Positions 13,785 to 52,052 of a stretch of DNA of 64,000 nucleotides are shown here, one piece after another. The translations under genes and the position numbers were made by a program. The stretch lies in IMG/VR virus record IMGVR_UViG_3300028029_000006, positions 24,236 through 88,235 of that record; one strand, written 5' to 3'. This DNA is from a virus. Under the pieces are notes generated by a model. It ran no database searches. It was not told where the DNA came from and saw only the letters and a program-made list of their open reading frames with translations. The number at the start of each line of letters is the position of its first letter. Within the stretch, counting starts at the first letter, position 1.

Positions 13785-14515
13785 TACCACAGGGAGCCCT
13801 TCCGGTTTATGATCGTGATATTGATGTGACTGCAGTAGTCATTTCAGCTCATGGTTCTGGTCCTGAATCTCGTGTTTTTGGAGATCGTGTTACGATTCCT
13901 GAGTTTGAAGTTTATTCAAACCCGACTGTTCGTATCGCTGAAGTGAAAAGACGTAGATTCAACGTAATTGATCGTGCGGTTCAGAAAGCACGTCAAGAGA
14001 TTATGGCACAAGAAGACGCTAACGTCTTCGCAGCTCTCGATGCTTCTGCTGTAGTTGAAAACCAACCTCAGGATGTTGCTGATGGTGGTCTTCTTAAGCG
14101 AGATCTTGTTGAACTTAAGGTTCAGGTTGATCGTTGGGACCTGGTTACGACCAAGTTCTTCATGAACATCAATGAATTCACTGATATCCTTAACTGGGCA
14201 TCTGGTGGTGGACAAGGCGCTGGTGGTGGAGAAGTTGATGCTGTCACGCAGCGAGAGATCCTTCAAACTGGGCTTTATGCTCACATTTGGGGAGCTGACA
14301 TCATGGTGTCAAAGATCGTGCCTCCTGGAACGATTTACTCTTGTGCCGATCCTGAATTTGTTGGGGTCATGCCGATTAGGCAAGATATCGAAGTATTGCC
14401 AGCGGATGAACCTCGCAAGCTTAGCCTGGGTTGGGTCGTCTCAGAAATCATTGGAATTGGTATTGTTAACCCCCGAGGCGTTGCAAAGGGCAGCAAATCC
14501 CAAGCACCTGGTTGA
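13785..14515 (+). CDS. Major capsid protein, exon 2 (HK97-like fold)
   Basis: PEFEVYSNPTVRIAEVKRRRFNVIDRAVQKARQEIMAQED...GWVVSEIIGIGIVNPRGV; strong codon bias. Confidence 0.85.
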
Positions 14516-14541
14516 GCTAAAACCTAGTAAATAGATAGTTA

Positions 14542-14576
14542 AATAGGGCCGCTGGAATTCCAGCGGCCTTATTTTA
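14542..14576. terminator. Bidirectional terminator between convergent capsid and endonuclease genes
   Basis: aatagggccgctgga-at-tccagcggccttatttt. Confidence 0.8.
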
Positions 14577-15620
14577 TTTGTCCGAATAACGCTTTGAATA
14601 TCCTTGTATATTATTTTTAATTAGACATTGTGTCTCATCTATTTGATTAAGCAACTTTAAATATATTGAATGTTTACGATCCATAAATATATTGGCATCA
14701 CTGTAAAGCCATTTCATAATTTTTTCTACTTGCCTATTACCAGCCGATGTAACATCAAATACTACAGAGTGTTGTGTACTTAAATAAATACCCATGTTTA
14801 CATTTACATTATCTATAATCACTTTTCTAACTTCTTCTGCAAATTGTTTAATAGAAGTAATTTTAAAATATGAACTGGCACCTTTTTTAGTGTTAACATA
14901 AATACTACCATCGCCATCAAAATAACCTCTTATGAAGTGCTTTTGTAATTCTGAATCTAACCATGTTGGGAAGGTAATTTTAAATGTCTTAGCTGGCATA
15001 CAACCTTGCTTCTCTAAAATTGAACAAATGTGTTTACTGTTTATATTCAAATAACAGCTGTAGTAGTTTTTAAGACCATTTCCTAAATCTCTTTTTCGAG
15101 TGCATGATTTTACATGAATTTCGGGATTTTCTTTATAAATCAGTTTGGCAAATTTATGTAAAATATCATTATCTTGTTTTTGCAATTCAATTCGCACAAA
15201 ATTCCCAGATTTAACATTGCCACCATCAGCGTAAAGAAAACCTAAAAAATAAGCTTTTTCTTCTGTGTTTATCACATCAAAAAAATCTTCATTAATTGGA
15301 TATTTCCTATGACATTCAGATGAATTACGTATTTCAATATTGTTTCTTTTTAAATATCTAAGAATAATCGTATTACTTACATTGTAAGTATTTGCAATTT
15401 GTGAGGCAGATTGTCCATCGGAATAAAGTTGACACATATCCTTTATATCTTTATGTAAAAGTTTACAAATTTTAGTTCTAATTTTAATATCTTCACTTTT
15501 TAATAGTTTAAGTATATATGTTGAAGATCGACTAAATCTCTTAGCTATCTTGGTTGAACCTATGCCGTTTATATATAGTTTTTTAATATCTTTTTTTTCT
15601 TCATCTGTTAATTTCGCCAT
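14574..15620 (-). CDS. Free-standing LAGLIDADG endonuclease with tandem HTH N-terminus
   Basis: YFLGFLYADG and FIRGYFDGDG motifs. Confidence 0.9.
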   Translation of the reverse strand: MAKLTDEEKKDIKKLYINGIGSTKIAKRFSRSSTYILKLLKSEDIKIRTKICKLLHKDIKDMCQLYSDGQSASQIANTYNVSNTIILRYLKRNNIEIRNSSECHRKYPINEDFFDVINTEEKAYFLGFLYADGGNVKSGNFVRIELQKQDNDILHKFAKLIYKENPEIHVKSCTRKRDLGNGLKNYYSCYLNINSKHICSILEKQGCMPAKTFKITFPTWLDSELQKHFIRGYFDGDGSIYVNTKKGASSYFKITSIKQFAEEVRKVIIDNVNVNMGIYLSTQHSVVFDVTSAGNRQVEKIMKWLYSDANIFMDRKHSIYLKLLNQIDETQCLIKNNIQGYSKRYSDK

Positions 15621-15676
15621 TTTAAGCCTTTTTTTTAAGGGGTGCTAGTTAGTCTCTGATGGTTATATAAACAACT

Positions 15677-16645
15677 ATGGCACATTTGACTTCACCTCAA
15701 ATAGATGAAATTATTGAATTATATTTATCTGGAAAATCTCCAAAAGAGATTGGTAATTTGTTTGGAATTTATAATTCCAGTGTTAGCAGAATAATTCGAC
15801 GAAATAATATACCATGCAATCAACAAAACAGAATAACAGATGAACAATTATTTTATATTTGTGAAAATTATGTATTAGGTAATAGCTCTGAGAAAATAGC
15901 TAAGGAATTAAATATTAATCCTAGTACAGTTTGTAGGATTTTAAAAAGAAACAATATTAAAATTAGGGACAACTCAGAAAATAAAAGAAAATACTGGTTG
16001 AATAAACATTGGTTAGATGATATTGATTCACAAGAGAAAGCTTATTTCTTGGGGATATTTTGGGCTGATGGGAGTGTTAGTAAATCTAAAAATGACATTT
16101 CTTTACGTCTACACACCAAAGATAGAGACGTATTGACGAAAATATCTCACTTTTTCTATGGAAAAGATCGTGTTAGTGATTATATTGAAGACACCAACAA
16201 GGTCAGCACACCTGTGTCAAGGATATCCTTGTATTCAGAATATTTAAAAAACAGGATGAAATGTTTAGGAATTAAGCCTAACAAGTCTAAACAGATTAAA
16301 TTTCCGACTAAAAAAGCAATTAAAAGCAGTTTATTATCTCATTTCATTCGAGGCTTGTTGGATGGTGATGGTTGTATATGTATAAGGCGAAATGGCAGAG
16401 CTACTGTTGACTTCACTGGAAATACATATGTGATTAACGCTTTGAATTATAAATTATTGAAGCTTGATTTTAATAATAGAGTTTATTATAGTGAAATTAA
16501 AGATTCGTGGTCATTACAAATTAATAGTGATAGTAATATTATTAATTTTTTAGATTGGATTTATAAGGATAGTACAATTCATTTGGAAAGGAAATATGCA
16601 AAATATAGAGAAATCAAAAATAGATCAGATCAAACAAATGACTGA
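15677..16645 (+). CDS. Free-standing LAGLIDADG endonuclease with tandem HTH N-terminus
   Basis: YFLGIFWADG and FIRGLLDGDG motifs. Confidence 0.9.
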   Translation: MAHLTSPQIDEIIELYLSGKSPKEIGNLFGIYNSSVSRIIRRNNIPCNQQNRITDEQLFYICENYVLGNSSEKIAKELNINPSTVCRILKRNNIKIRDNSENKRKYWLNKHWLDDIDSQEKAYFLGIFWADGSVSKSKNDISLRLHTKDRDVLTKISHFFYGKDRVSDYIEDTNKVSTPVSRISLYSEYLKNRMKCLGIKPNKSKQIKFPTKKAIKSSLLSHFIRGLLDGDGCICIRRNGRATVDFTGNTYVINALNYKLLKLDFNNRVYYSEIKDSWSLQINSDSNIINFLDWIYKDSTIHLERKYAKYREIKNRSDQTND

Positions 16646-18218
16646 AGAAGGGTATTCTGCGAGAAAAATTGCGAGAAATCTAGATATTAAGTTCACAAAA
16701 GTTAAGGAAATTGTTAAAAGCAACGAATTTTCAATTAAAAAAGAGTTATTTGATTATGATTTAATTGATAGTATAATTAGATTATATGAATTAGGTGTTT
16801 CTGCTAAGAATTTGGGTATTAAATTTTCTATTGATAAGAGAAGAGTGCAGCGTTGGGCTAAAGAGAAGGGTCTTTTAAGAGAGAGAGGTGGTGATAATCG
16901 ATTAAAACATCAAATTAAAGTTAAACCTATCACAGCTAAGAAAATTATTGAGTCTATTATTGTCCCTAAAAAGGTAGAGAAGGTTAGGGTGGAGAAAAAG
17001 ATTTCTGTTTTAAAGCCTTGTTTGAGCGAGAACCCTAATTTAAGACCTGAAAAGAAAAAATGGGTTGGAGAGATTAATTTTCCAAAGACTAATAATATAA
17101 GTAATGATCATGACACATTAATTTATAATGATCATTTAATTTGGAAAGGCAATAAATTAACGGATAAATTTTTAAGAACTGTTGATGAGGAAGCTAGAGA
17201 TGAGATTGGTAAAGATATTTTTAATTTCTATCTTAAGTATGATTTTGGTAATTTCAGAGTTCCTGAGGATAGAATTAAGAGAAGCATGTTATCTTTGAAA
17301 GCATATAAACCTAAAAGTGAAATTATTGATGATATTGTTTATTTATCTAATTCTGGGACTACAGGTTATGATGTATATAAAGGTTTTTTTCCAAATATAA
17401 TTAAGATTAAAGGAGTTGGTCGTCCATCTGTATATGATGTTGTTACTAATAGAGAGAAGTTATGGGCAACTATAAGGAATAGGTTGGGAAATACTTTATT
17501 ATGGAATCCTGGTGGGGGAACGCCTGTACAGTTCCCAATGAATCAAACATTGTCTCAATTATTAATTGGGGCTAAGAATTCTGGTTTGGCTAGTATGGGT
17601 TCTATTTTTAAGCCGACTGTAGCTAAGGCTATTTATCAGCAGTGGGCTGGAAATGATTTTAATGTATTGGATTATTCATGTGGTTTTGGTACTAGATTGT
17701 TGGGTTTAATGGGTTGTGGTTTTGATAATGTTAAGTATTTTGGATATGAACCTAATACAGAAACTTATAATGGTTTAATTAAGATGATTGATTATTTTGA
17801 TTTTGATGCTAAGATTAAAAAATGCGGTTCTGAGGTGGAGTGTTTTTCTGAGAAGATGGATTTGGCATTTAGTTCTCCTCCATATTGGACTCAGGAGATT
17901 TATAGTGACGAGGCTACTCAGTGTTATAACAAATTTACTGAGTATAAAGATTGGTTGAAGGGTTATTGGAGAGCTACTGTTAAGAATATAAACTTTATGT
18001 TAAAGGATGATGGTGTGTTTGGGATTAATATTGGCGGACAATCAAATCCTTTAATGCAAAAATTAGCTGATGATCTTAATAAAATTATTGTTGATGAGGG
18101 TTTTGAGTTAACTGATACTTGGTATATGAAAACAAGCAAAAGTCATTTATCTGGTAAGAAAAATAATCCTAATAAGAAGATTAAATTGGAAGGGATCTTT
18201 TTTTATAAGAAAAGATAA
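16596..18218 (+). CDS. DNA amino-methyltransferase (m4C/m6A) with N-terminal HTH repeats
   Basis: SAM motif VLDYSCGFG followed by catalytic SPPY. Confidence 0.8.
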   Translation: MQNIEKSKIDQIKQMTEEGYSARKIARNLDIKFTKVKEIVKSNEFSIKKELFDYDLIDSIIRLYELGVSAKNLGIKFSIDKRRVQRWAKEKGLLRERGGDNRLKHQIKVKPITAKKIIESIIVPKKVEKVRVEKKISVLKPCLSENPNLRPEKKKWVGEINFPKTNNISNDHDTLIYNDHLIWKGNKLTDKFLRTVDEEARDEIGKDIFNFYLKYDFGNFRVPEDRIKRSMLSLKAYKPKSEIIDDIVYLSNSGTTGYDVYKGFFPNIIKIKGVGRPSVYDVVTNREKLWATIRNRLGNTLLWNPGGGTPVQFPMNQTLSQLLIGAKNSGLASMGSIFKPTVAKAIYQQWAGNDFNVLDYSCGFGTRLLGLMGCGFDNVKYFGYEPNTETYNGLIKMIDYFDFDAKIKKCGSEVECFSEKMDLAFSSPPYWTQEIYSDEATQCYNKFTEYKDWLKGYWRATVKNINFMLKDDGVFGINIGGQSNPLMQKLADDLNKIIVDEGFELTDTWYMKTSKSHLSGKKNNPNKKIKLEGIFFYKKR

Positions 18219-18224
18219 TTAAAA

Positions 18225-21200
18225 ATGAAAGAATTAATAATAAAATTAGCTGAAAAGTATAGTGCCAATGGATCTTTTGTGAGTTTTGAACATGATGGTA
18301 AATTGAGCGAAGAATCCCAAAAAAAATTTAAAGATAATATAGATTGGGCTTACATTTCTCAATTTGAAGTGTTATCTGAAGATTTCATTAGAGAATTTAA
18401 AGATAAAGTAAATTGGATGTATGTATCTTTTTATCAAGATTTATCAGAGAATTTTATTAGAGAATTTCAAGATAAAGTAGATTGGGTTAAAATATCTTCT
18501 TACCAAAAGTTATCAGAAGAGTTTATTAAAGAGTTTAAAGATAAAGTAGATTGGTTTTCTATATCTTATAATCAAAATTTATCTAAAAAGTTTAAAAAAG
18601 AATTCCAACATAAATTAAATCCAGAATCAAAAAAAGAAGTTATGAAAAATTCATTAAAAGAAGAAATTAAGAAAATTGCCAAATTAAGTGATTGTTCAGG
18701 GATGGTATTTAATGATAATGGTAAATTAACTGAAAAATCAAGGAAAAAATTTAAAGATAAAGTAAATTGGATGTATGTATCTTTTTATCAAGATTTATCA
18801 GAGAATTTTATTAGAGAATTTCAAGATAATGTAGATTGGTTTTGGTTATCTTGTGGTAATAATCCTGAAGATTTTATTCGAGAATTCAGCCATAAAGTAG
18901 ATTGGAAATCTATATCTTCTAATCAGAATTTACCTGAAGAGTTTATTCGAGAATTCAGCCATAAAGTAGATTGGGTTTGGATATCTAGACGTCCGAATTT
19001 ATCTAAAGAATTCGAAAAAGAGTTTCAATATAAATTAAATGAAGCTATGAAAGATTCATTAAAAGAAGAATTTGAGGATAATATAAATTGGTTAAAGGTA
19101 TCTGAATCTCAAAAGTTATCTGAAAATTTTATTAGAGAGTTTCAAGATAAAGTAGATTGGGGTTATATATCTTGTTATCAAGATTTATCTGAAAATTTTA
19201 TTAGAGAGTTTCAAGATAAAGTAGTTTGGTTAAATATATCTAAATCTCAAAAATTATCTAAAGATTTCAAAAAAGAATTCCAACATAAATTAAATCCAGA
19301 ATCAAAAAAAGAAGTTATGAAAGATTCATTAAAAAAAGAAATTATATATCTTGCTCGTTTAAATAATTGTTTAGATATGACGTTTGATGAAGATACTGGT
19401 AAGCTAACAACAAAATCAAAAGAAGAATTTAAAGAGAGAGTATTTTTAACTTGTCACCATGAAGAATTATCTGAAGATTTCATTATAGAGTTTCAAAATG
19501 AAATAGGTTGGACATCTATATCTATTTATCAAAATTTATCAGAGAATTTCATGAGAGAATTTCAGCATGAATTAAATTGGGTTAATATATCTAGATGTCA
19601 AAAGTTATCTGAAGATTTTATTAGAAATTTTCAACATAAAGTAGATTGGTTTTGTATATCTAAATATCAGGTATTATCTGAAGATTTTATTAGAGAATTT
19701 CAAGGTAGAGTTAATTGGCCTGAAATATCTTGTAACCAAGTATTATCAGAAGATTTCAAGGAAGAATTTAAACATAAATTGAATCAAACAAGAATAAATG
19801 AAATTGATTTTTTTAAAAACCTCCATAACGAGACAAATTCGGAATCGCTATCTACAGAATTTTTTATAGAACTACAACATAAACTAGATATAGATAAATT
19901 AAATTCAGGCTTAAAAAAAGAAATTAAGAAAATTGCCAAATTAAATAATTGTTCAGAGATGATGTTTAATTGTTATAATGGTGAATTAACTAAAAAATCA
20001 AGAGAAGAGTTTATAAATAAAGTAGATTGGATAGCTATATCTACTCAAAAACTATCAGAAGATTTCATTAAAGAATTTCAAGATGAAGTAGATTGGCGTA
20101 ATATATCTAATAATCAAAAACTATCAGAAGGTTTTATAAGAGAATTCAAAGATAAAGTGTGGTGGTATGAAATATCCATTAATCAAAAACTATCAGAAGG
20201 TTTTATAAGAGAATTCAAAGATAAAGTGTGGTGGTATGAAATATCCATATATCAAAAGTTATCTGAAGAGTTTACTAAAGAATTTAAAGATAAAGTAGTT
20301 TGGTTAAATATATCTCATAAGCAAAATTTATCTGAAGATTTTATTAAAGAATTTCAAAATAAAGTAAATTGGATTAATATTTCTTATCACCAAAACTTAT
20401 CAGAAGGTTTTATTAAAGAATTTAAAGATGAAGTAGATTGGGATGGTATATCTAATAATCAAAAACTATCCGAAGATTTCATTAGAGAATTTCAAAATAA
20501 AGTAAATTGGTTTTCTATATCTTATAATCAAAATTTATCTAAAAAGTTTAAAAAAGAATTCCAACATAAATTAAATCCAGAATCAAAAAAAGAAGTTACG
20601 AAAGATTCATTAAAAGAAGAAATTAAGAAAATTGCCAAATTAAGTTATTGTTCAGAGATGGCGTTTGATTATTATAACGGTAAATTAACTGAAAAATCAA
20701 GGAAAAAATTTAAAGATAAAGTAGATTGGTACAATATATCTAGTTGGCAAGACTTATCTGAAGAGTTTATTAAAGAATTTCAAGATGAGGTATGTTGGGG
20801 TGATATATCTTGTTATCAAAAATTATCAGAAGGTTTTATTAGAGAATTTCAAGATGAGGTATGTTGGGGTGATATATCTTGTTATCAAAAATTATCAGAA
20901 GGTTTTATTAGAGAATTTCAAGATAAAGTAGATTGGGTTAACATATCTCATAAGCAAATTTTGTCTGAAGATTTTATTAGAGAGTTTCAAGATAAAGTAT
21001 GTTGGCACTACATATCTTTAAGTCAGGTATTATCAGAAAAGTTTAAAGAAGAGTTTCAGCATAAATTAGATCCAACAAAGAAAAAAACAAAAATAGATCT
21101 AGTAAAACAATCTGGAAATAAAATTAAAGATTCAATCAAACATGGAATTGCAGTTGGAGCTGCTACAGAAGCGATTAATTATGTGTTTAATTTAATATCA

Positions 21201-21557
21201 AAACAACTTGGGTTATCAGAAGAAGCTTTAAATAATCCAGTTAAACGAGAATTAGTTATGGGGTTAAGTTTAGCTGCACTTCATATAGGATCTACCGTTT
21301 TCCAAGATCAAATTCCTGGAATGGATAAGGTTCAAACTGGATGCGAATTAGTCATTGAAGGTAAAAGCAAAGATAATTTTTCAGCAATGGTGAAACATCT
21401 TGCACCTGTTTTAATTAAATCTTCAAATTTAATGGATCCTAAGCAATACCTTTCCAATTCCATTAAAGAAAACAGTTTAATTGAAAAAGAACTATCTTCA
21501 AAAGAAGAAATTGAAGAAATTGAAATTACATATGATTTAGAAAGAGAAACAATATGA
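18225..21557 (+). CDS. Trp-repeat (23-aa) solenoid protein with hydrophobic C-terminal domain
   Basis: About 29 copies of xWxxISxxQxLSExFIxEFxxKV in six capped blocks. Confidence 0.8.
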   Translation: MKELIIKLAEKYSANGSFVSFEHDGKLSEESQKKFKDNIDWAYISQFEVLSEDFIREFKDKVNWMYVSFYQDLSENFIREFQDKVDWVKISSYQKLSEEFIKEFKDKVDWFSISYNQNLSKKFKKEFQHKLNPESKKEVMKNSLKEEIKKIAKLSDCSGMVFNDNGKLTEKSRKKFKDKVNWMYVSFYQDLSENFIREFQDNVDWFWLSCGNNPEDFIREFSHKVDWKSISSNQNLPEEFIREFSHKVDWVWISRRPNLSKEFEKEFQYKLNEAMKDSLKEEFEDNINWLKVSESQKLSENFIREFQDKVDWGYISCYQDLSENFIREFQDKVVWLNISKSQKLSKDFKKEFQHKLNPESKKEVMKDSLKKEIIYLARLNNCLDMTFDEDTGKLTTKSKEEFKERVFLTCHHEELSEDFIIEFQNEIGWTSISIYQNLSENFMREFQHELNWVNISRCQKLSEDFIRNFQHKVDWFCISKYQVLSEDFIREFQGRVNWPEISCNQVLSEDFKEEFKHKLNQTRINEIDFFKNLHNETNSESLSTEFFIELQHKLDIDKLNSGLKKEIKKIAKLNNCSEMMFNCYNGELTKKSREEFINKVDWIAISTQKLSEDFIKEFQDEVDWRNISNNQKLSEGFIREFKDKVWWYEISINQKLSEGFIREFKDKVWWYEISIYQKLSEEFTKEFKDKVVWLNISHKQNLSEDFIKEFQNKVNWINISYHQNLSEGFIKEFKDEVDWDGISNNQKLSEDFIREFQNKVNWFSISYNQNLSKKFKKEFQHKLNPESKKEVTKDSLKEEIKKIAKLSYCSEMAFDYYNGKLTEKSRKKFKDKVDWYNISSWQDLSEEFIKEFQDEVCWGDISCYQKLSEGFIREFQDEVCWGDISCYQKLSEGFIREFQDKVDWVNISHKQILSEDFIREFQDKVCWHYISLSQVLSEKFKEEFQHKLDPTKKKTKIDLVKQSGNKIKDSIKHGIAVGAATEAINYVFNLISKQLGLSEEALNNPVKRELVMGLSLAALHIGSTVFQDQIPGMDKVQTGCELVIEGKSKDNFSAMVKHLAPVLIKSSNLMDPKQYLSNSIKENSLIEKELSSKEEIEEIEITYDLERETI
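18342..21068 (+). repeat. 69-bp coding tandem repeat arrays
   Basis: Units visible in DNA; near-exact adjacent duplications at ~20111-20248 and ~20774-20924. Confidence 0.9.
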
Positions 21558-22186
21558 AAACAAATGATATTTATTGTGGTGATGCTTTAGATTTACTAGA
21601 AACAATGGATAATAATCCAAATCTCATTATTATGAGTCCTCCAGATATAGCAGAGACAAGTTATTCACTACCAGAATATAAAAATTTCCTTAAAAAGGTA
21701 TATGGTTTAGCTGTTAGTAAACTAAGTAAGAATGGTGTTATTGCATCTATTACTACAGATAGAAAAATGAAAGGAAAAATATATACCAAACATGTGGATA
21801 TTATTAATTTTACAGATTTAAATCTTTTTAATTACAAAATTTGGGCAAAATCACTTAAAACAAATCTTTATATTCTTAATTATTGTCATATGTTGTTTTT
21901 CAGGAATAAAAAGTGTACAAATAATAAAGTTAAAGAATATTATCCAGATGTTTGGTTGATTGAATTAGATAAATTGCCTTGGTATCCTAGCAAAGATAGT
22001 TTTCCTAGTGAATTAATTGAAAGAATAATTCTTAATTTCACAAATCCAGGAGATTTAGTATTAGATCCATTCATTGGATCTGGAAAAACAGCTAATATGT
22101 GTATTAAAAATGATAGAGAATTCCTTGGATTTGATTTAGATCCGAAAATGATTGAATTAACAAAGAAACATTTAAACATTTCTTAA
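21554..22186 (+). CDS. Beta-class DNA amino-methyltransferase (N6_N4_Mtase)
   Basis: IYCGDAL, MSPPD, FPSELIERII and VLDPFIGSGKT motifs. Confidence 0.85.
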   Translation: MKTNDIYCGDALDLLETMDNNPNLIIMSPPDIAETSYSLPEYKNFLKKVYGLAVSKLSKNGVIASITTDRKMKGKIYTKHVDIINFTDLNLFNYKIWAKSLKTNLYILNYCHMLFFRNKKCTNNKVKEYYPDVWLIELDKLPWYPSKDSFPSELIERIILNFTNPGDLVLDPFIGSGKTANMCIKNDREFLGFDLDPKMIELTKKHLNIS

Positions 22187-22187
22187 G

Positions 22188-22799
22188 GTGAATATGAATA
22201 AAATAACAAAATATTACACTTATCTAAAAATGAAATTTGGAATTGAGGTAAAATTATCAGAAGAGTTTATTAGAGAGTTTAAGGATGAAGTAGATTGGTT
22301 TTATATATCTAGTAAACAAAAATTATCTGAGAGTTTCATTAGAGAATTTCAAGATGAGGTATGTTGGGTTGAAGTATATGTTAATCAAGTGTTATCTGAG
22401 GATTTTATTAGAGAATTTCAAGATAAAGTAAATTGGAGGTATATATCTCAATTTCAAAAATTATCCGAAGATTTCATTAAAGAATTTCAAAATAAAGTAC
22501 ATTGAGATTACATATCTGCTTATAAAGAATTATCAGAAGATTTCATTAGAGAATTTAAAAATAAAATAGATTGGCACCAAATATTTATTTTTCAAAAATT
22601 ATCAGAAGATTTTTTAATAGAATTTAAAAATAGGGCAGATTGTATAGATTGGGCTAAAATATCTTGTTATCAAACATTATCTGAAGAGTTTATTAGAGAG
22701 TTTAAAGATAAAGTAGATTGGTATAATATATCTAAATGTCAAGATTTATCTGATAAATTCTTAAAACAAATGTATTATAAATATAAAAAATTAAAATAA
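22188..22799 (+). pseudogene. Trp-repeat protein interrupted by TGA at a conserved Trp codon (22503-22505)
   Basis: Repeats continue in frame past the TGA (H*DYISAYKELSEDFIREF...) to TAA 22797-22799. Confidence 0.8.
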
Positions 22800-22863
22800 T
22801 TATATTATTTTTATTAAAACTCAACAAAACATTCCAAAGGCAATATTTTAACATATTTTTGAT

Positions 22864-23676
22864 ATGAGCATCAAAAACAAAACATTGCCTTTGGATGGGT
22901 GTGTCAATTTAGTTAATAGCTTAGTAGAAGACTTCGTTAAAACAGCTGATACTGGAGCAGAATTCCCCTCTAAGAAGGATTATAAAGTTATTTCAAGGGA
23001 TGAGCCGGCTCTTGTTAAAAGAGCCGCTAGAATGGCTGCTATGAAGTCTTTGCAAATAACCCCATTAACAAAACTTGCCTTTGATACTCGAAGAGTTGAC
23101 CAAAAAACAGAAAGAGTCCCAAGAGCAAACCTGCAACATTGGAATAGATCCCAACAATTTCTTGATGATGAAGTTAAAGAAAAAATCAAATCATTCTCAA
23201 AATTACTTCCATCACTAGAACAAATTAAAAGTAAATACGGTCATCATCCAGAATATTTCCAAAGCTACGCCAAAACCCTGTTAGATTCAGTTAAAAGAAT
23301 AGCAAGAGTTGGCGAAAGTGAAATGGATATATTTAGACCACAAGTTGATTATTTAGAACAATTATTATTTACTCGTTATAGATTAAGTCTAGACGAAATA
23401 ACAAAATCTTCCAAATCCAAAATTTATGACAAACTCATGAAAAAAGATGAAGATCTTGTTAAAAGAGACGCTTACCTTAAAATGACTGGTGACTCTCAAG
23501 AAGAAAATACCAAAAACTCCTCAACTAATTTTGCCAAAGATGGTAACTCTCTAAATGATACAACTCAAGATAGTATTATTAGCGCCATTTTCGGGAATCA
23601 AGATTTAAGAAGAGATGGTGAAAAAAAAGTAGAACGAACTATTACTATTACTATTAAGGATGAGGTAATTGATTAA
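22864..23676 (+). CDS. Hypothetical head-associated protein
   Basis: 270 aa with KTAD, KRAA and KLAF motifs. Confidence 0.45.
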   Translation: MSIKNKTLPLDGCVNLVNSLVEDFVKTADTGAEFPSKKDYKVISRDEPALVKRAARMAAMKSLQITPLTKLAFDTRRVDQKTERVPRANLQHWNRSQQFLDDEVKEKIKSFSKLLPSLEQIKSKYGHHPEYFQSYAKTLLDSVKRIARVGESEMDIFRPQVDYLEQLLFTRYRLSLDEITKSSKSKIYDKLMKKDEDLVKRDAYLKMTGDSQEENTKNSSTNFAKDGNSLNDTTQDSIISAIFGNQDLRRDGEKKVERTITITIKDEVID

Positions 23677-51710: not shown

Positions 51711-52052
51711 TTATTTTGTGTGTAATTCTCCTTTCCAATCTACTTTTTTTTCAAATTCCATTATGAAATTTTTAGATAATTTTTGACAGCTGAATATACT
51801 AATCCATTTTACTTTATTTTTAAATTCATCAATAAAATCTTCTGATAATTTTTGATATTTAAATATTATAAGCCAATCTACTTTATCTTGAAACTCTCTA
51901 ATGAAACCTTCTGATAATTCTTGAGAACCAGATATATAAAACCAATCATCATTGTTAATTTTTTTAATAAATTTTTTCTTTTCTTTTTCAGTTAATTTAC
52001 CGTTTTGTTTATATTTTTTAATTACTTTTTTAACTAATTTATTTATATTCAC
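51711..52052 (-). CDS. Short Trp-repeat (23-aa) protein
   Basis: GKLTEK cap plus three DWxxISxxQxLSExFI units. Confidence 0.8.
   Translation of the reverse strand: MNINKLVKKVIKKYKQNGKLTEKEKKKFIKKINNDDWFYISGSQELSEGFIREFQDKVDWLIIFKYQKLSEDFIDEFKNKVKWISIFSCQKLSKNFIMEFEKKVDWKGELHTK

Follow-up and report, generated by a model that had tools for sequence, protein, structure and literature searches.

A six-module tryptophan-repeat gene with a predicted variable face in an uncultured 409-kb phage

The name 'tryptophan repeat gene family' dates from the first entomopoxvirus genomes. Members include MSV027, MSV029, MSV205 and AMV029 of entomopoxviruses, gp558-563 of Bacillus phage G and gp053-058 of Bacillus phage vB_BpuM-BpSp (BpSp), which have their 23-aa unit and their predicted fold in common with the protein described here; as here, the entomopoxvirus and phage members form a multigene family with tandem genes. 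A further entomopoxvirus tryptophan-repeat protein, AMV254, was reported with an F-box (PMC7728225). In a literature search, no paper on the structure or function of the family was found, and the motif was absent from the papers using the name.

In the window analyzed here, the whole 64,000-nucleotide stretch of DNA from an uncultured 409-kb phage, the tryptophan-repeat ORF 18225-21557 (plus strand) reads through without a stop under table 11 and codes for 1110 amino acids. Its tblastn matches included phage G gp563 and six genes of BpSp whose annotation is 'tryptophan repeat gene family'. The top Foldseek match in BFVD was MSV027 of Melanoplus sanguinipes entomopoxvirus (E 4.2e-22, TM 0.79, rmsd 3.2, 201 columns, 43% identity), followed by AMV029 (46% identity), phage G gp558-563, and pithovirus and marseillevirus proteins, so that the poxvirus proteins are 43-46% identical to this protein over about 200 residues. 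In total, 63 viral models of BFVD matched at E<=1e-3, all of them predicted, with no family member solved. Sequence comparison places the ORF, as a large member, in the viral tryptophan repeat gene family, which reaches from bacterial phages to giant insect and amoeba viruses with identity over 40%. An earlier note on this DNA had correctly recognized a repeat protein but missed that the family was already named in entomopoxviruses, giant viruses and jumbo phages. New here are the predicted fold and variable face, the at least 32 paralogues, the accessory island, the rare C-terminal domain (domain A) and, in strain pairs of other phages, array differences by whole units of 69 nt.

Anatomy, relatives and genomic setting

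The features of the locus, with the third family member in the window, are as follows.

16596-18218, plus strand: HTH and N6/N4 DNA methylase, the upstream gene, separated from the repeat gene by 6 nt
18225-21557, plus strand: whole ORF, with six capped modules, C-terminal helical domain and acidic tail (phrog_3532 E 9.6e-232)
18225-18641, plus strand: module 1 (residues 1-139), N-cap, 4 units, C-cap
18642-19046, plus strand: module 2 (residues 140-274), N-cap from M140, 4 units, one of 22 aa
19047-19316, plus strand: module 3 (residues 275-364), truncated cap, 3 units, C-cap
19317-19889, plus strand: module 4 (residues 365-555), N-cap, 5 units with the first degenerate, degenerate linker
19890-20600, plus strand: module 5 (residues 556-792), three-helix N-cap, 8 units, C-cap; part modelled
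20601-21071, plus strand: module 6 (residues 793-949), N-cap 81% identical to that of module 2, 5 units
21072-21449, plus strand: domain A (residues 950-1075), basic, moderately hydrophobic, long helices
21450-21554, plus strand: acidic tail, net charge -7, also found after domain A in homologues
21554-22186, plus strand: N6/N4 DNA methylase (PF01555 E 7e-23), the downstream gene, its start overlapping the repeat-gene stop by 4 nt
22188-22797, plus strand: neighbouring family member with a phrog_3532 match; in-frame TGA at 22503-22505 where a Trp codon is expected, frame open to 22797
51711-52052, minus strand: family member of 113 aa, the third in the window (phrog_3532 E 9.5e-25)

The translation contains 29 units in six blocks of 4, 4, 3, 5, 8 and 5, in agreement with the earlier count of about 29. 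Units are 23 aa long in 26 cases and 22 aa in two, while one is degenerate. With the tryptophan as position 1, W1, S5, L10, F14 and F18 are invariant across the 26 regular units. N-caps and C-caps are found again at the block borders, where the earlier note had placed 'reusable caps'; what it had not recognized is that single-module proteins of the family normally begin and end in these caps. Internal Shine-Dalgarno sequences before the module-initial Met codons were unconvincing (local sequence aaaaaagaagtt ATG). The whole protein has a pI of 5.5 and a net charge per module of 0 to -13; the idea of a DNA mimic was dropped, the charge being no more than mildly acidic.

The further family members proposed at 22188 and 51711 both match phrog_3532. 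Genome-wide, the phage carries at least 32 paralogous ORFs, complete or decayed and several with stop codons, which comprise 171 units and occupy 6.3% of the genome. Two other multi-module proteins of the same genome (657 and 739 aa) have internal caps and a C-terminal helical tail, and multi-module proteins with these same features were also identified in unrelated NCBI contigs (P0143, 1446 aa; P0144, 882 aa).

The C-terminal domain noticed earlier is real and conserved, moderately hydrophobic and basic (pI 9.4; highest 19-residue hydropathy 1.2). Among 1.84 billion (1.84e9) proteins searched, domain A has 23 representatives at E<=1e-3, and it lies at the C-terminal end in nearly all of them. 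Its predicted model has a pLDDT of 85.9. No Pfam family was found for it, Foldseek against the PDB gave no match at E<=1e-3, a wide VIA-align search gave weak matches alone, the ESM Atlas returned nothing, and a pattern search of IMG/VR yielded no close relative. hhalign found no link between domain A and the C-terminal tail of P0144.

By synteny, ORF 18225-21557 sits in a lineage-specific accessory island, with a DNA methylase gene on either side. In relatives, the two flanking conserved genes are joined directly, or have homing endonucleases and one methylase alone between them. The repeat gene is thus an accessory passenger of a variable island and appears to be co-transcribed with the two DNA methylase genes. 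A promoter scan found sites no more numerous than in shuffled sequence, and no strong terminator-like hairpin was present in 15677-22800, where one weak 5-pair match lies at 17636.

Predicted fold and variable positions

The AlphaFold2 model of module 5 is all-alpha (pLDDT 93.7, pTM 0.85), and each unit in the model consists of two short helices, W1-x7 and E12-E17. The solenoid proposed earlier is thus what is predicted: the 23-residue units, with two short helices each, would stack into an all-alpha solenoid whose core is probably built by W1, I4, S5, L10, F14, I15, F18 and V22. No match of the array model to the PDB was obtained with Foldseek at E<=1e-3, and a wide VIA-align search gave weak matches alone; in the ESM Atlas the array matched viral look-alike clusters. 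The repeat has no Pfam family. PF08004, a precomputed label on homologues, was absent on recheck at E<=0.01, and engineered OspA repeats matched in a PDB sequence search by chance only.

Variation is concentrated at positions 2, 3, 6 and 7, with entropies of 3.58, 2.85, 3.46 and 2.59 bits within the ORF and of 3.96, 3.84, 3.88 and 3.14 bits across 162 units genome-wide. In the latter set the conserved core lies below 1.6 bits, and positions 9, 13 and 23 reach 2.3-2.8. The variable tetrads are distinct in 26 of the 29 units, 15-20 residue types occur at these positions overall (19-20 at positions 2, 3 and 6), and the consensus of 98 homologues has 'x' at the same four positions. As deduced from DSSP helix limits and helical periodicity, positions 2, 3, 6 and 7 would be found on the first helix of every unit, facing outwards, and together form one long variable stripe. 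Structure prediction had been suggested as a check on whether the variable residues share one face; by the same limits and periodicity, they fall on an exposed arc of one helix per unit.

The composition of these positions differs from the drift expectation. Tyr (4.7x), Cys (4x), His (3.2x) and Trp (2.3x) are enriched and Leu, Ala, Val and Pro are depleted; Tyr accounts for 16.5% of residues versus 3.5% in the proteome and 5.9% by nucleotide expectation, and Leu for 2.2% versus 8.3% and 11.3%, respectively. In a Nei-Gojobori analysis of 13,041 unit pairs, the variable codons were saturated (pN about 0.63) in every bin, and the low scaffold pS in these 19-codon units is mostly sampling noise. 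Because of this saturation, dN/dS between paralogues cannot separate diversifying selection from relaxed constraint.

Repeat copies, strain variation and assembly

Three features show exact copying within the ORF.

18550-18642, plus strand: last unit and C-cap, identical to 20506-20598 over 93 nt
20111-20248, plus strand: perfect tandem duplicate, 20111-20179 identical to 20180-20248 (2 x 69 nt)
20774-20924, plus strand: tandem duplicate, 20774-20855 identical to 20843-20924 (82 nt exact, spacing 69 nt)

In addition, 18394-18475 equals 18748-18829 exactly over 82 nt, and further exact matches join 18649-18689 to 20605-20645 and 18720-18764 to 20679-20723. Owing to the copies that start at 18550, 18649 and 18720, the junction of modules 1 and 2 nearly equals that of modules 5 and 6. 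DNA identity between the remaining units is only about 60-80%, and the exact repeats of 69-93 nt are therefore not due to chance. Among mosaic paralogues the C-terminal domain is identical over 345 nt, while the arrays differ by 22%. Strain evidence on array change was obtained in other phages rather than for this gene: in two diverged strain pairs, four units stood in place of five, and arrays differed by indels of 69 nt and 138 nt. Several strain pairs from different samples had identical arrays, which indicates that array change is episodic, and in one phage the arrays were identical in six to seven samples. The recombinational shuffling proposed from identical adjacent and distant units is thus borne out by exact DNA duplicates, mosaic paralogues and whole-unit replacement between strains of other phages. 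Duplication of units, unequal crossing-over and gene conversion among paralogues are the processes by which the family expands and diversifies.

The module order and exact tandem copy number were taken from just one metagenome assembly, built from short reads. The single public run with this stretch is a DNA run from an epibiont metagenome, in which short contigs break inside the array, without indels; no RNA run was listed among the public runs matching the stretch. Exact repeats of up to 93 nt, the contig breaks in the array and reported alternative joints (e.g., 18416 to 22529) would be compatible with an assembly chimera, in which short reads from several of the at least 32 paralogues had been joined in frame into one six-module ORF. 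We consider this quite improbable, since the pieces of Logan contigs listed for the locus span about 2.9 kb, with 0 differences in five of the six pieces within the gene and 2 in the junction piece 20574-20723; since the distinct variable tetrads supply unique words; and since other multi-module proteins exist in the same genome and in NCBI contigs.

Proposed role and known systems compared

Family membership, anatomy, recombination footprints and setting, together with the predicted fold, are probably explained jointly by a capped-module solenoid acting as a multivalent protein-binding adaptor, accessory to the phage and diversified by recombination. We infer the adaptor role, the partners and the role of the tail. 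The protein would present six capped modules in series, then the rare basic helical domain and then the acidic tail; each module would most likely recognize a partner via its variable face, and the C-terminal domain may anchor or pair the protein. Elsewhere, arrays are fused to PTP/DSP phosphatase, protein kinase, WG repeats or 'domain B', and these fusions, with the F-box reported for AMV254, suggest that arrays may serve as a generic targeting module.

It is unlikely that the protein is instead structural or a spacer, with outward positions that are unconstrained, vary neutrally and have no role in recognition. Codon saturation in all paralogue comparisons and the identical arrays of several strain pairs would fit such a spacer, but the residues at the variable positions, Tyr and Leu for example, occur at frequencies that depart widely from those of the proteome and from those expected from the nucleotides, other proteins carry arrays joined to enzymes, and the gene is missing from its syntenic place in relatives, which indicates that it is no core virion part. 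The constant frame, in which each unit has two variable dipeptides, and the adjoining DNA methylase genes recall code-reading nucleic-acid binders like TALE/PPR, in which the two dipeptides would specify a base. Such a reading is very improbable, as the variable positions use 15-20 residue types, at up to near-maximal entropy, where a code would need a small set, the modules and the whole protein are neutral to acidic, the unit has 23 aa versus 33-35, and no TALE or PPR profile was matched. The use of 19-20 amino acids in a neutral to acidic protein argues that the variable positions are no nucleic-acid code.

Programmed diversification, either by somatic cassette assembly (VLR) or by retroelement-guided mutagenesis (DGR), appears the least probable of all. 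Unit replacement between strains and variable positions rich in Asn, Tyr, His and Cys would be expected from it, but no reverse transcriptase was found in the 96%-complete genome (RVT_1 had no match in the 409-kb record and matched in control genomes). DGR AAY mutagenesis cannot yield Lys, Glu, Gln, Trp or Met, which make up about 17% of the variable residues. The genes are complete ORFs, whereas VLR genes are partial and flanked by cassettes, and the arrays of one phage persisted unchanged across samples. Diversification is by ordinary duplication and gene conversion, without a programmed VLR- or DGR-like process. With no sign of programmed assembly, no DGR reverse transcriptase, no nucleic-acid code and unchanged arrays in several strain pairs, the likeness to VLR and TALE systems drawn in the earlier note is not supported.

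Building on the adaptor model, a bolder and rather doubtful proposal is that tryptophan-repeat arrays could be a natural hypervariable binder scaffold, common to huge phages and to giant viruses of eukaryotes. They would be the viral equivalent of ankyrin/DARPin arrays, in a fold that the PDB lacks. With its rare C-terminal domain as anchor or pairing element, the six-module protein might then be a multivalent trap for several host proteins, retargeted by unit swaps between strains; in view of the methylase neighbours, defence or restriction factors would be possible targets. The fold is confidently predicted, and no solved structure comes close to it. Should the variable face bind targets, the compact 23-residue repeat would be a useful scaffold for binder engineering, and the family would represent a widespread, unrecognized class of virus-host interaction proteins. 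The question is testable in cultured carriers of the family (phage G of Bacillus megaterium, BpSp of B. pumilus and LPJP1 of Listeria grayi, an engineerable phage; PMC8460666).

The lamprey VLR is an LRR beta-strand solenoid, while the model here is all-alpha. The best solved match is the LRV protein of Azotobacter vinelandii (1LRV), with 24-aa units of two small helices in a superhelix; in VIA-align the match to the array is weak (Z 5.5, rmsd 6.0, 195 residues aligned), lacks a sequence relation (6% identity) and is no better than those to DARPins and ankyrin proteins, which tie with it at Z about 5, and LRV (PF01816) was not matched among Pfam at E<=0.1. DARPins and designed helical-repeat binders resemble the present protein in having a fixed consensus frame, capping units and few randomized surface positions rich in Tyr, Trp and His. 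However, those binders are engineered libraries on 33-aa ankyrin units, whereas the phage has natural diversity, distributed among its paralogues, and the binder role is putative. Pfam Ank profiles did not match this protein, and at a structural Z of about 5 the likeness to ankyrin and DARPins is one of general architecture only. Poxvirus ankyrin/PRANC (F-box-like) and giant-virus ankyrin, BTB and F-box families are likewise expanded, fast-changing helical repeats with a small C-terminal docking domain. The ankyrin/PRANC repeat is unrelated (33 aa versus 23 aa here), the Pfam matches of this protein include no F-box or PRANC, and the host here is a bacterium without SCF ligase. The closest relatives remain the named tryptophan-repeat proteins. 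BpSp carries six separate genes, whereas the present 1110-aa ORF unites six capped modules, and, unlike in the named members, a rare C-terminal helical domain is added and at least 32 genes occur in one phage.

Repeat units, modules and C-terminal domain

Read with the standard bacterial code, ORF 18225-21557 (+) has no internal stop and specifies a product of 1110 residues. Parsing of the product gave 29 units in blocks of 4, 4, 3, 5, 8, and 5, in agreement with the ~29 units in six blocks reported in an earlier note made from the sequence. Counting from the tryptophan as position 1, W1, S5, L10, F14, and F18 are invariant across the 26 regular units, the entropy at positions 2, 3, 6, and 7 is 2.6-3.6 bits, and 26 different variable tetrads occur among the 29 units. 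Every identical recurring unit named earlier was recovered as an exact DNA match:

20111-20248 (+): exact repeat of 69 nt, perfect tandem
20774-20924 (+): exact repeat of 82 nt
18394-18475 = 18748-18829 (+): exact repeat pair of 82 nt
18550-18642 = 20506-20598 (+): exact repeat pair of 93 nt

The 93-nt match continues, with short breaks, across an entire module junction. Since the remaining units are only ~60-80% identical to one another in DNA, these matches of 69-93 nt represent recent events. The only public run consists of short contigs breaking inside the array and the module order rests on a single assembly; least certain of all is how many copies the two perfect tandem duplicates comprise.

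The N-cap (MKELIKKIAKEYNC...GKLTKESRKEF), described earlier as reusable, is also the start of most single-module paralogues, so that the six blocks resemble six proteins of the family placed end to end. At three junctions of the gene the module start retains a Met. Since foreign multi-module proteins partly conserve it as well, this Met may belong to the cap instead of being the remnant of a start codon. Modules 2 and 6 have internal caps with 81% identity, and the caps next closest to them are the internal ones of the two other multi-module paralogues carrying domain A, the C-terminal helical domain (residues 950-1075). Unrelated contigs also encode proteins of several modules that have caps at internal positions and end in a helical tail (homologues P0143 and P0144), so this architecture recurs and is no isolated fusion.

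The C-terminal domain anticipated in the earlier note is present. It is basic (pI 9.4) and only moderately hydrophobic (maximum 19-residue hydropathy of 1.2), and is followed by an acidic tail. HMMER searches of 1.84 billion representatives identified 23 proteins with domain A at E<=1e-3. In the 16 strongest matches (E<=1e-10) the domain is located at the C-terminal end, with tryptophan repeats, MORN-like repeats or a different N-terminal portion ahead of it. Two database homologues, P0132 and P0133, join MORN-like repeats to domain A, and a paralogue at genome positions G000:C1:207140-207895 (-) has N-terminal MORN-like beta-hairpin repeats joined to tryptophan repeats. The domain A model (pLDDT 85.9, pTM 0.59) consists of long helices, and structural searches with it gave no informative match.

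Predicted fold and viral family

An AlphaFold model of module 5 (residues 556-792), built on an alignment of 98 homologues, predicts the proposed solenoid with a pLDDT of 93.7 and a pTM of 0.85. After a three-helix N-cap, each unit forms a pair of short helices, W1-x7 and E12-E17. As to whether the variable residues line one face, helix limits and periodicity place W1, I4, and S5 inside one 100-degree arc of the first helix and positions 2, 3, 6, and 7 on the opposite arc, so the variable residues should make a single outward stripe along the solenoid. Across 162 regular units genome-wide, 19-20 residue types occur at positions 2, 3, and 6 (3.8-4.0 bits), and the entropy at position 7 is 3.1 bits; conserved core positions remain under 1.6 bits, and values of 2.3-2.8 at positions 9, 13, and 23 are intermediate. 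The consensus of the 98 homologues, from many samples, likewise leaves positions 2, 3, 6, and 7 without a preferred residue. Tyr (4.7x), Cys (4x), His (3.2x), and Trp (2.3x) are enriched at the variable positions, and Leu, Ala, Val, and Pro are depleted, a composition differing from that expected from drift in an AT-rich genome. Such a composition resembles the recognition surfaces of binding interfaces and synthetic binder libraries. Paralogue dN/dS is saturated.

Foldseek searches of the PDB with the module 5 model gave no match at E<=1e-3. The best VIA-align match was 1LRV (Z 5.5, tied with DARPins), an LRV repeat protein with a 24-residue repeat; no solved structure is close. In BFVD, the model matched MSV027 of Melanoplus sanguinipes entomopoxvirus (E 4e-22, TM 0.79, rmsd 3.2, 43% identity), annotated as belonging to the tryptophan repeat gene family, as well as AMV029 (46% identity) and other entomopoxvirus members, gp558-563 of phage G, and proteins of pithoviruses, marseilleviruses, Orpheovirus, and Megaviridae. 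The family label originates in entomopoxviruses and is also used in a recent phage G paper.

No Pfam model was found for the repeat. The PHROGs match of the gene is phrog_3532 (function unknown, E 1e-231), shared by the two further members noticed earlier at 22188 and 51711 (-). Among cultured phages, tblastn located the family in multiple copies in Listeria phage LPJP1, Bacillus phage G, BpSp, AgentSmith, and Clostridium phage c-st; in BpSp the match corresponds to six genes in tandem that bear the label "putative tryptophan repeat gene family protein". IMG/VR yielded 140 matching stretches, their contigs reaching 497 kb and including giant-virus MAGs. Matches in 185,579 species genomes came to only 40 loci, almost all of them on small contigs of MAGs. 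Hence the family is in essence a viral one, reaching from phages to eukaryotic giant viruses. The repeat gene is a newly described and exceptionally large protein gene of this known, unstudied viral repeat family and not a new kind of system. The JGI names of some members (P0010, P0067, P0090, and P0088) include 'phosphoribosylanthranilate isomerase' or 'muramidase'; these look like annotation errors, since a Pfam scan of P0010 and P0088 found neither domain.

Genomic setting and diversification

The window belongs to an IMG/VR virus record (409,147 bp, 96% complete, 32% G+C), in which the repeat gene has the following setting:

14574-22800: island with two LAGLIDADG genes, HTH-methylase, repeat gene, second methylase, and decayed repeat gene
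14574-15620 (-): LAGLIDADG endonuclease gene, upstream of the repeat gene
15677-16645 (+): LAGLIDADG endonuclease gene, upstream of the repeat gene
16596-18218 (+): HTH-methylase gene, tightly 5' of the repeat gene
21554-22186 (+): N6/N4 methylase gene, its start overlapping the repeat gene stop; small repeat gene next

Homologues of the conserved genes 13826-14515 and 22864-23676 adjoin directly in three related phages (L097, L099, and L102), and in three others (L101, L104, and L106) only homing endonucleases and the HTH-methylase lie between them. No repeat gene was found between the pair in any of these six, and the five largest related records (17-66% complete) gave no family match. The repeat gene is thus lineage-specific cargo in a variable accessory island. 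A perfect hairpin of 15 bp, rich in G+C and with a T run after it, lies between convergent genes at 14541-14574, the only strong terminator-like site within 14400-23000. Homologues of the 452-aa product of 24288-25646 in L097, L101, L102, L104, and L107 match in two pieces (residues 1-332 and ~346-452) separated by 1.6 to 5.3 kb; these relatives therefore carry a large insertion or mobile element which the studied phage is without.

The paralogue count proposed in the earlier note gave at least 32 ORFs with two or more units, comprising 171 units and 6.3% of the genome. A translated search yielded 55 family matches, and internal stop codons interrupt 11 of these, a birth-and-death pattern. Domain A is carried by four paralogues, and domain B, a different C-terminal domain common in the family, by four others. 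Two overlapping ORFs at G000:C1:316094-317415 (+), of 165 aa (N-cap) and 296 aa (units and domain A), seem to derive from a single tryptophan-repeat/domain A gene that a frameshift has divided. In 22188-22797 (+), an in-frame TGA (22503-22505) falls exactly at an expected unit Trp codon (TGG), and the frame beyond is open for four further units, to 22797; the TGA arose as a very recent nonsense mutation or else serves for read-through.

The recombinational shuffling proposed earlier is borne out by the exact repeats within the gene and by further cases. Domain B is identical over 345 nt in paralogues G000:C1:181326-182654 (+) and 209914-211107 (-), and 22% of bases, at synonymous sites as well, differ in the five units immediately upstream, a sequence pattern indicative of mosaic recombination (recent gene conversion or domain swapping) rather than point mutation. 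In another phage sampled twice (L024/L025), one repeat gene keeps its cap, last units, and domain B, the first five units being replaced by four different ones, and a neighbouring paralogue has a converted domain B. Mismatch density in this pair is 4.6% in repeat DNA versus 0.75% elsewhere; in the pair L023/L028 it is 8.1% versus 3.0%, and 138-nt indels are also present. Several other strain pairs from different samples have identical arrays, among them a phage that occurs in six to seven samples. No reverse transcriptase was found in the genome carrying the six-module gene. Diversification is thus episodic and proceeds by duplication, gene conversion, and unequal crossing-over; nothing points to a dedicated mechanism.

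Putative role in protein recognition

Several lines of evidence point to the arrays being a protein-recognition module bringing an attached domain to its target. Arrays in family proteins are fused to tyrosine/dual-specificity phosphatase, protein kinase, WG repeats, domain B or domain A, and an F-box has been reported in the entomopoxvirus member AMV254 (PMC7728225). The same reading is favoured by the interface-like variable stripe and by the family being accessory, rapidly changing, and present in many copies. A nucleic-acid code read by the units is unlikely given the near-maximal residue diversity at the variable positions and a charge that ranges from neutral to acidic. Judging from its neighbourhood, with a methylase gene on either side, the gene may play a part in the contest with host restriction or defence.

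The family matters since it is widespread, its fold is without a solved counterpart, and cultured phages make experiments tractable. By analogy, tryptophan-repeat arrays may act like the ankyrin arrays of poxviruses and giant viruses, which bring an attached domain to a target.
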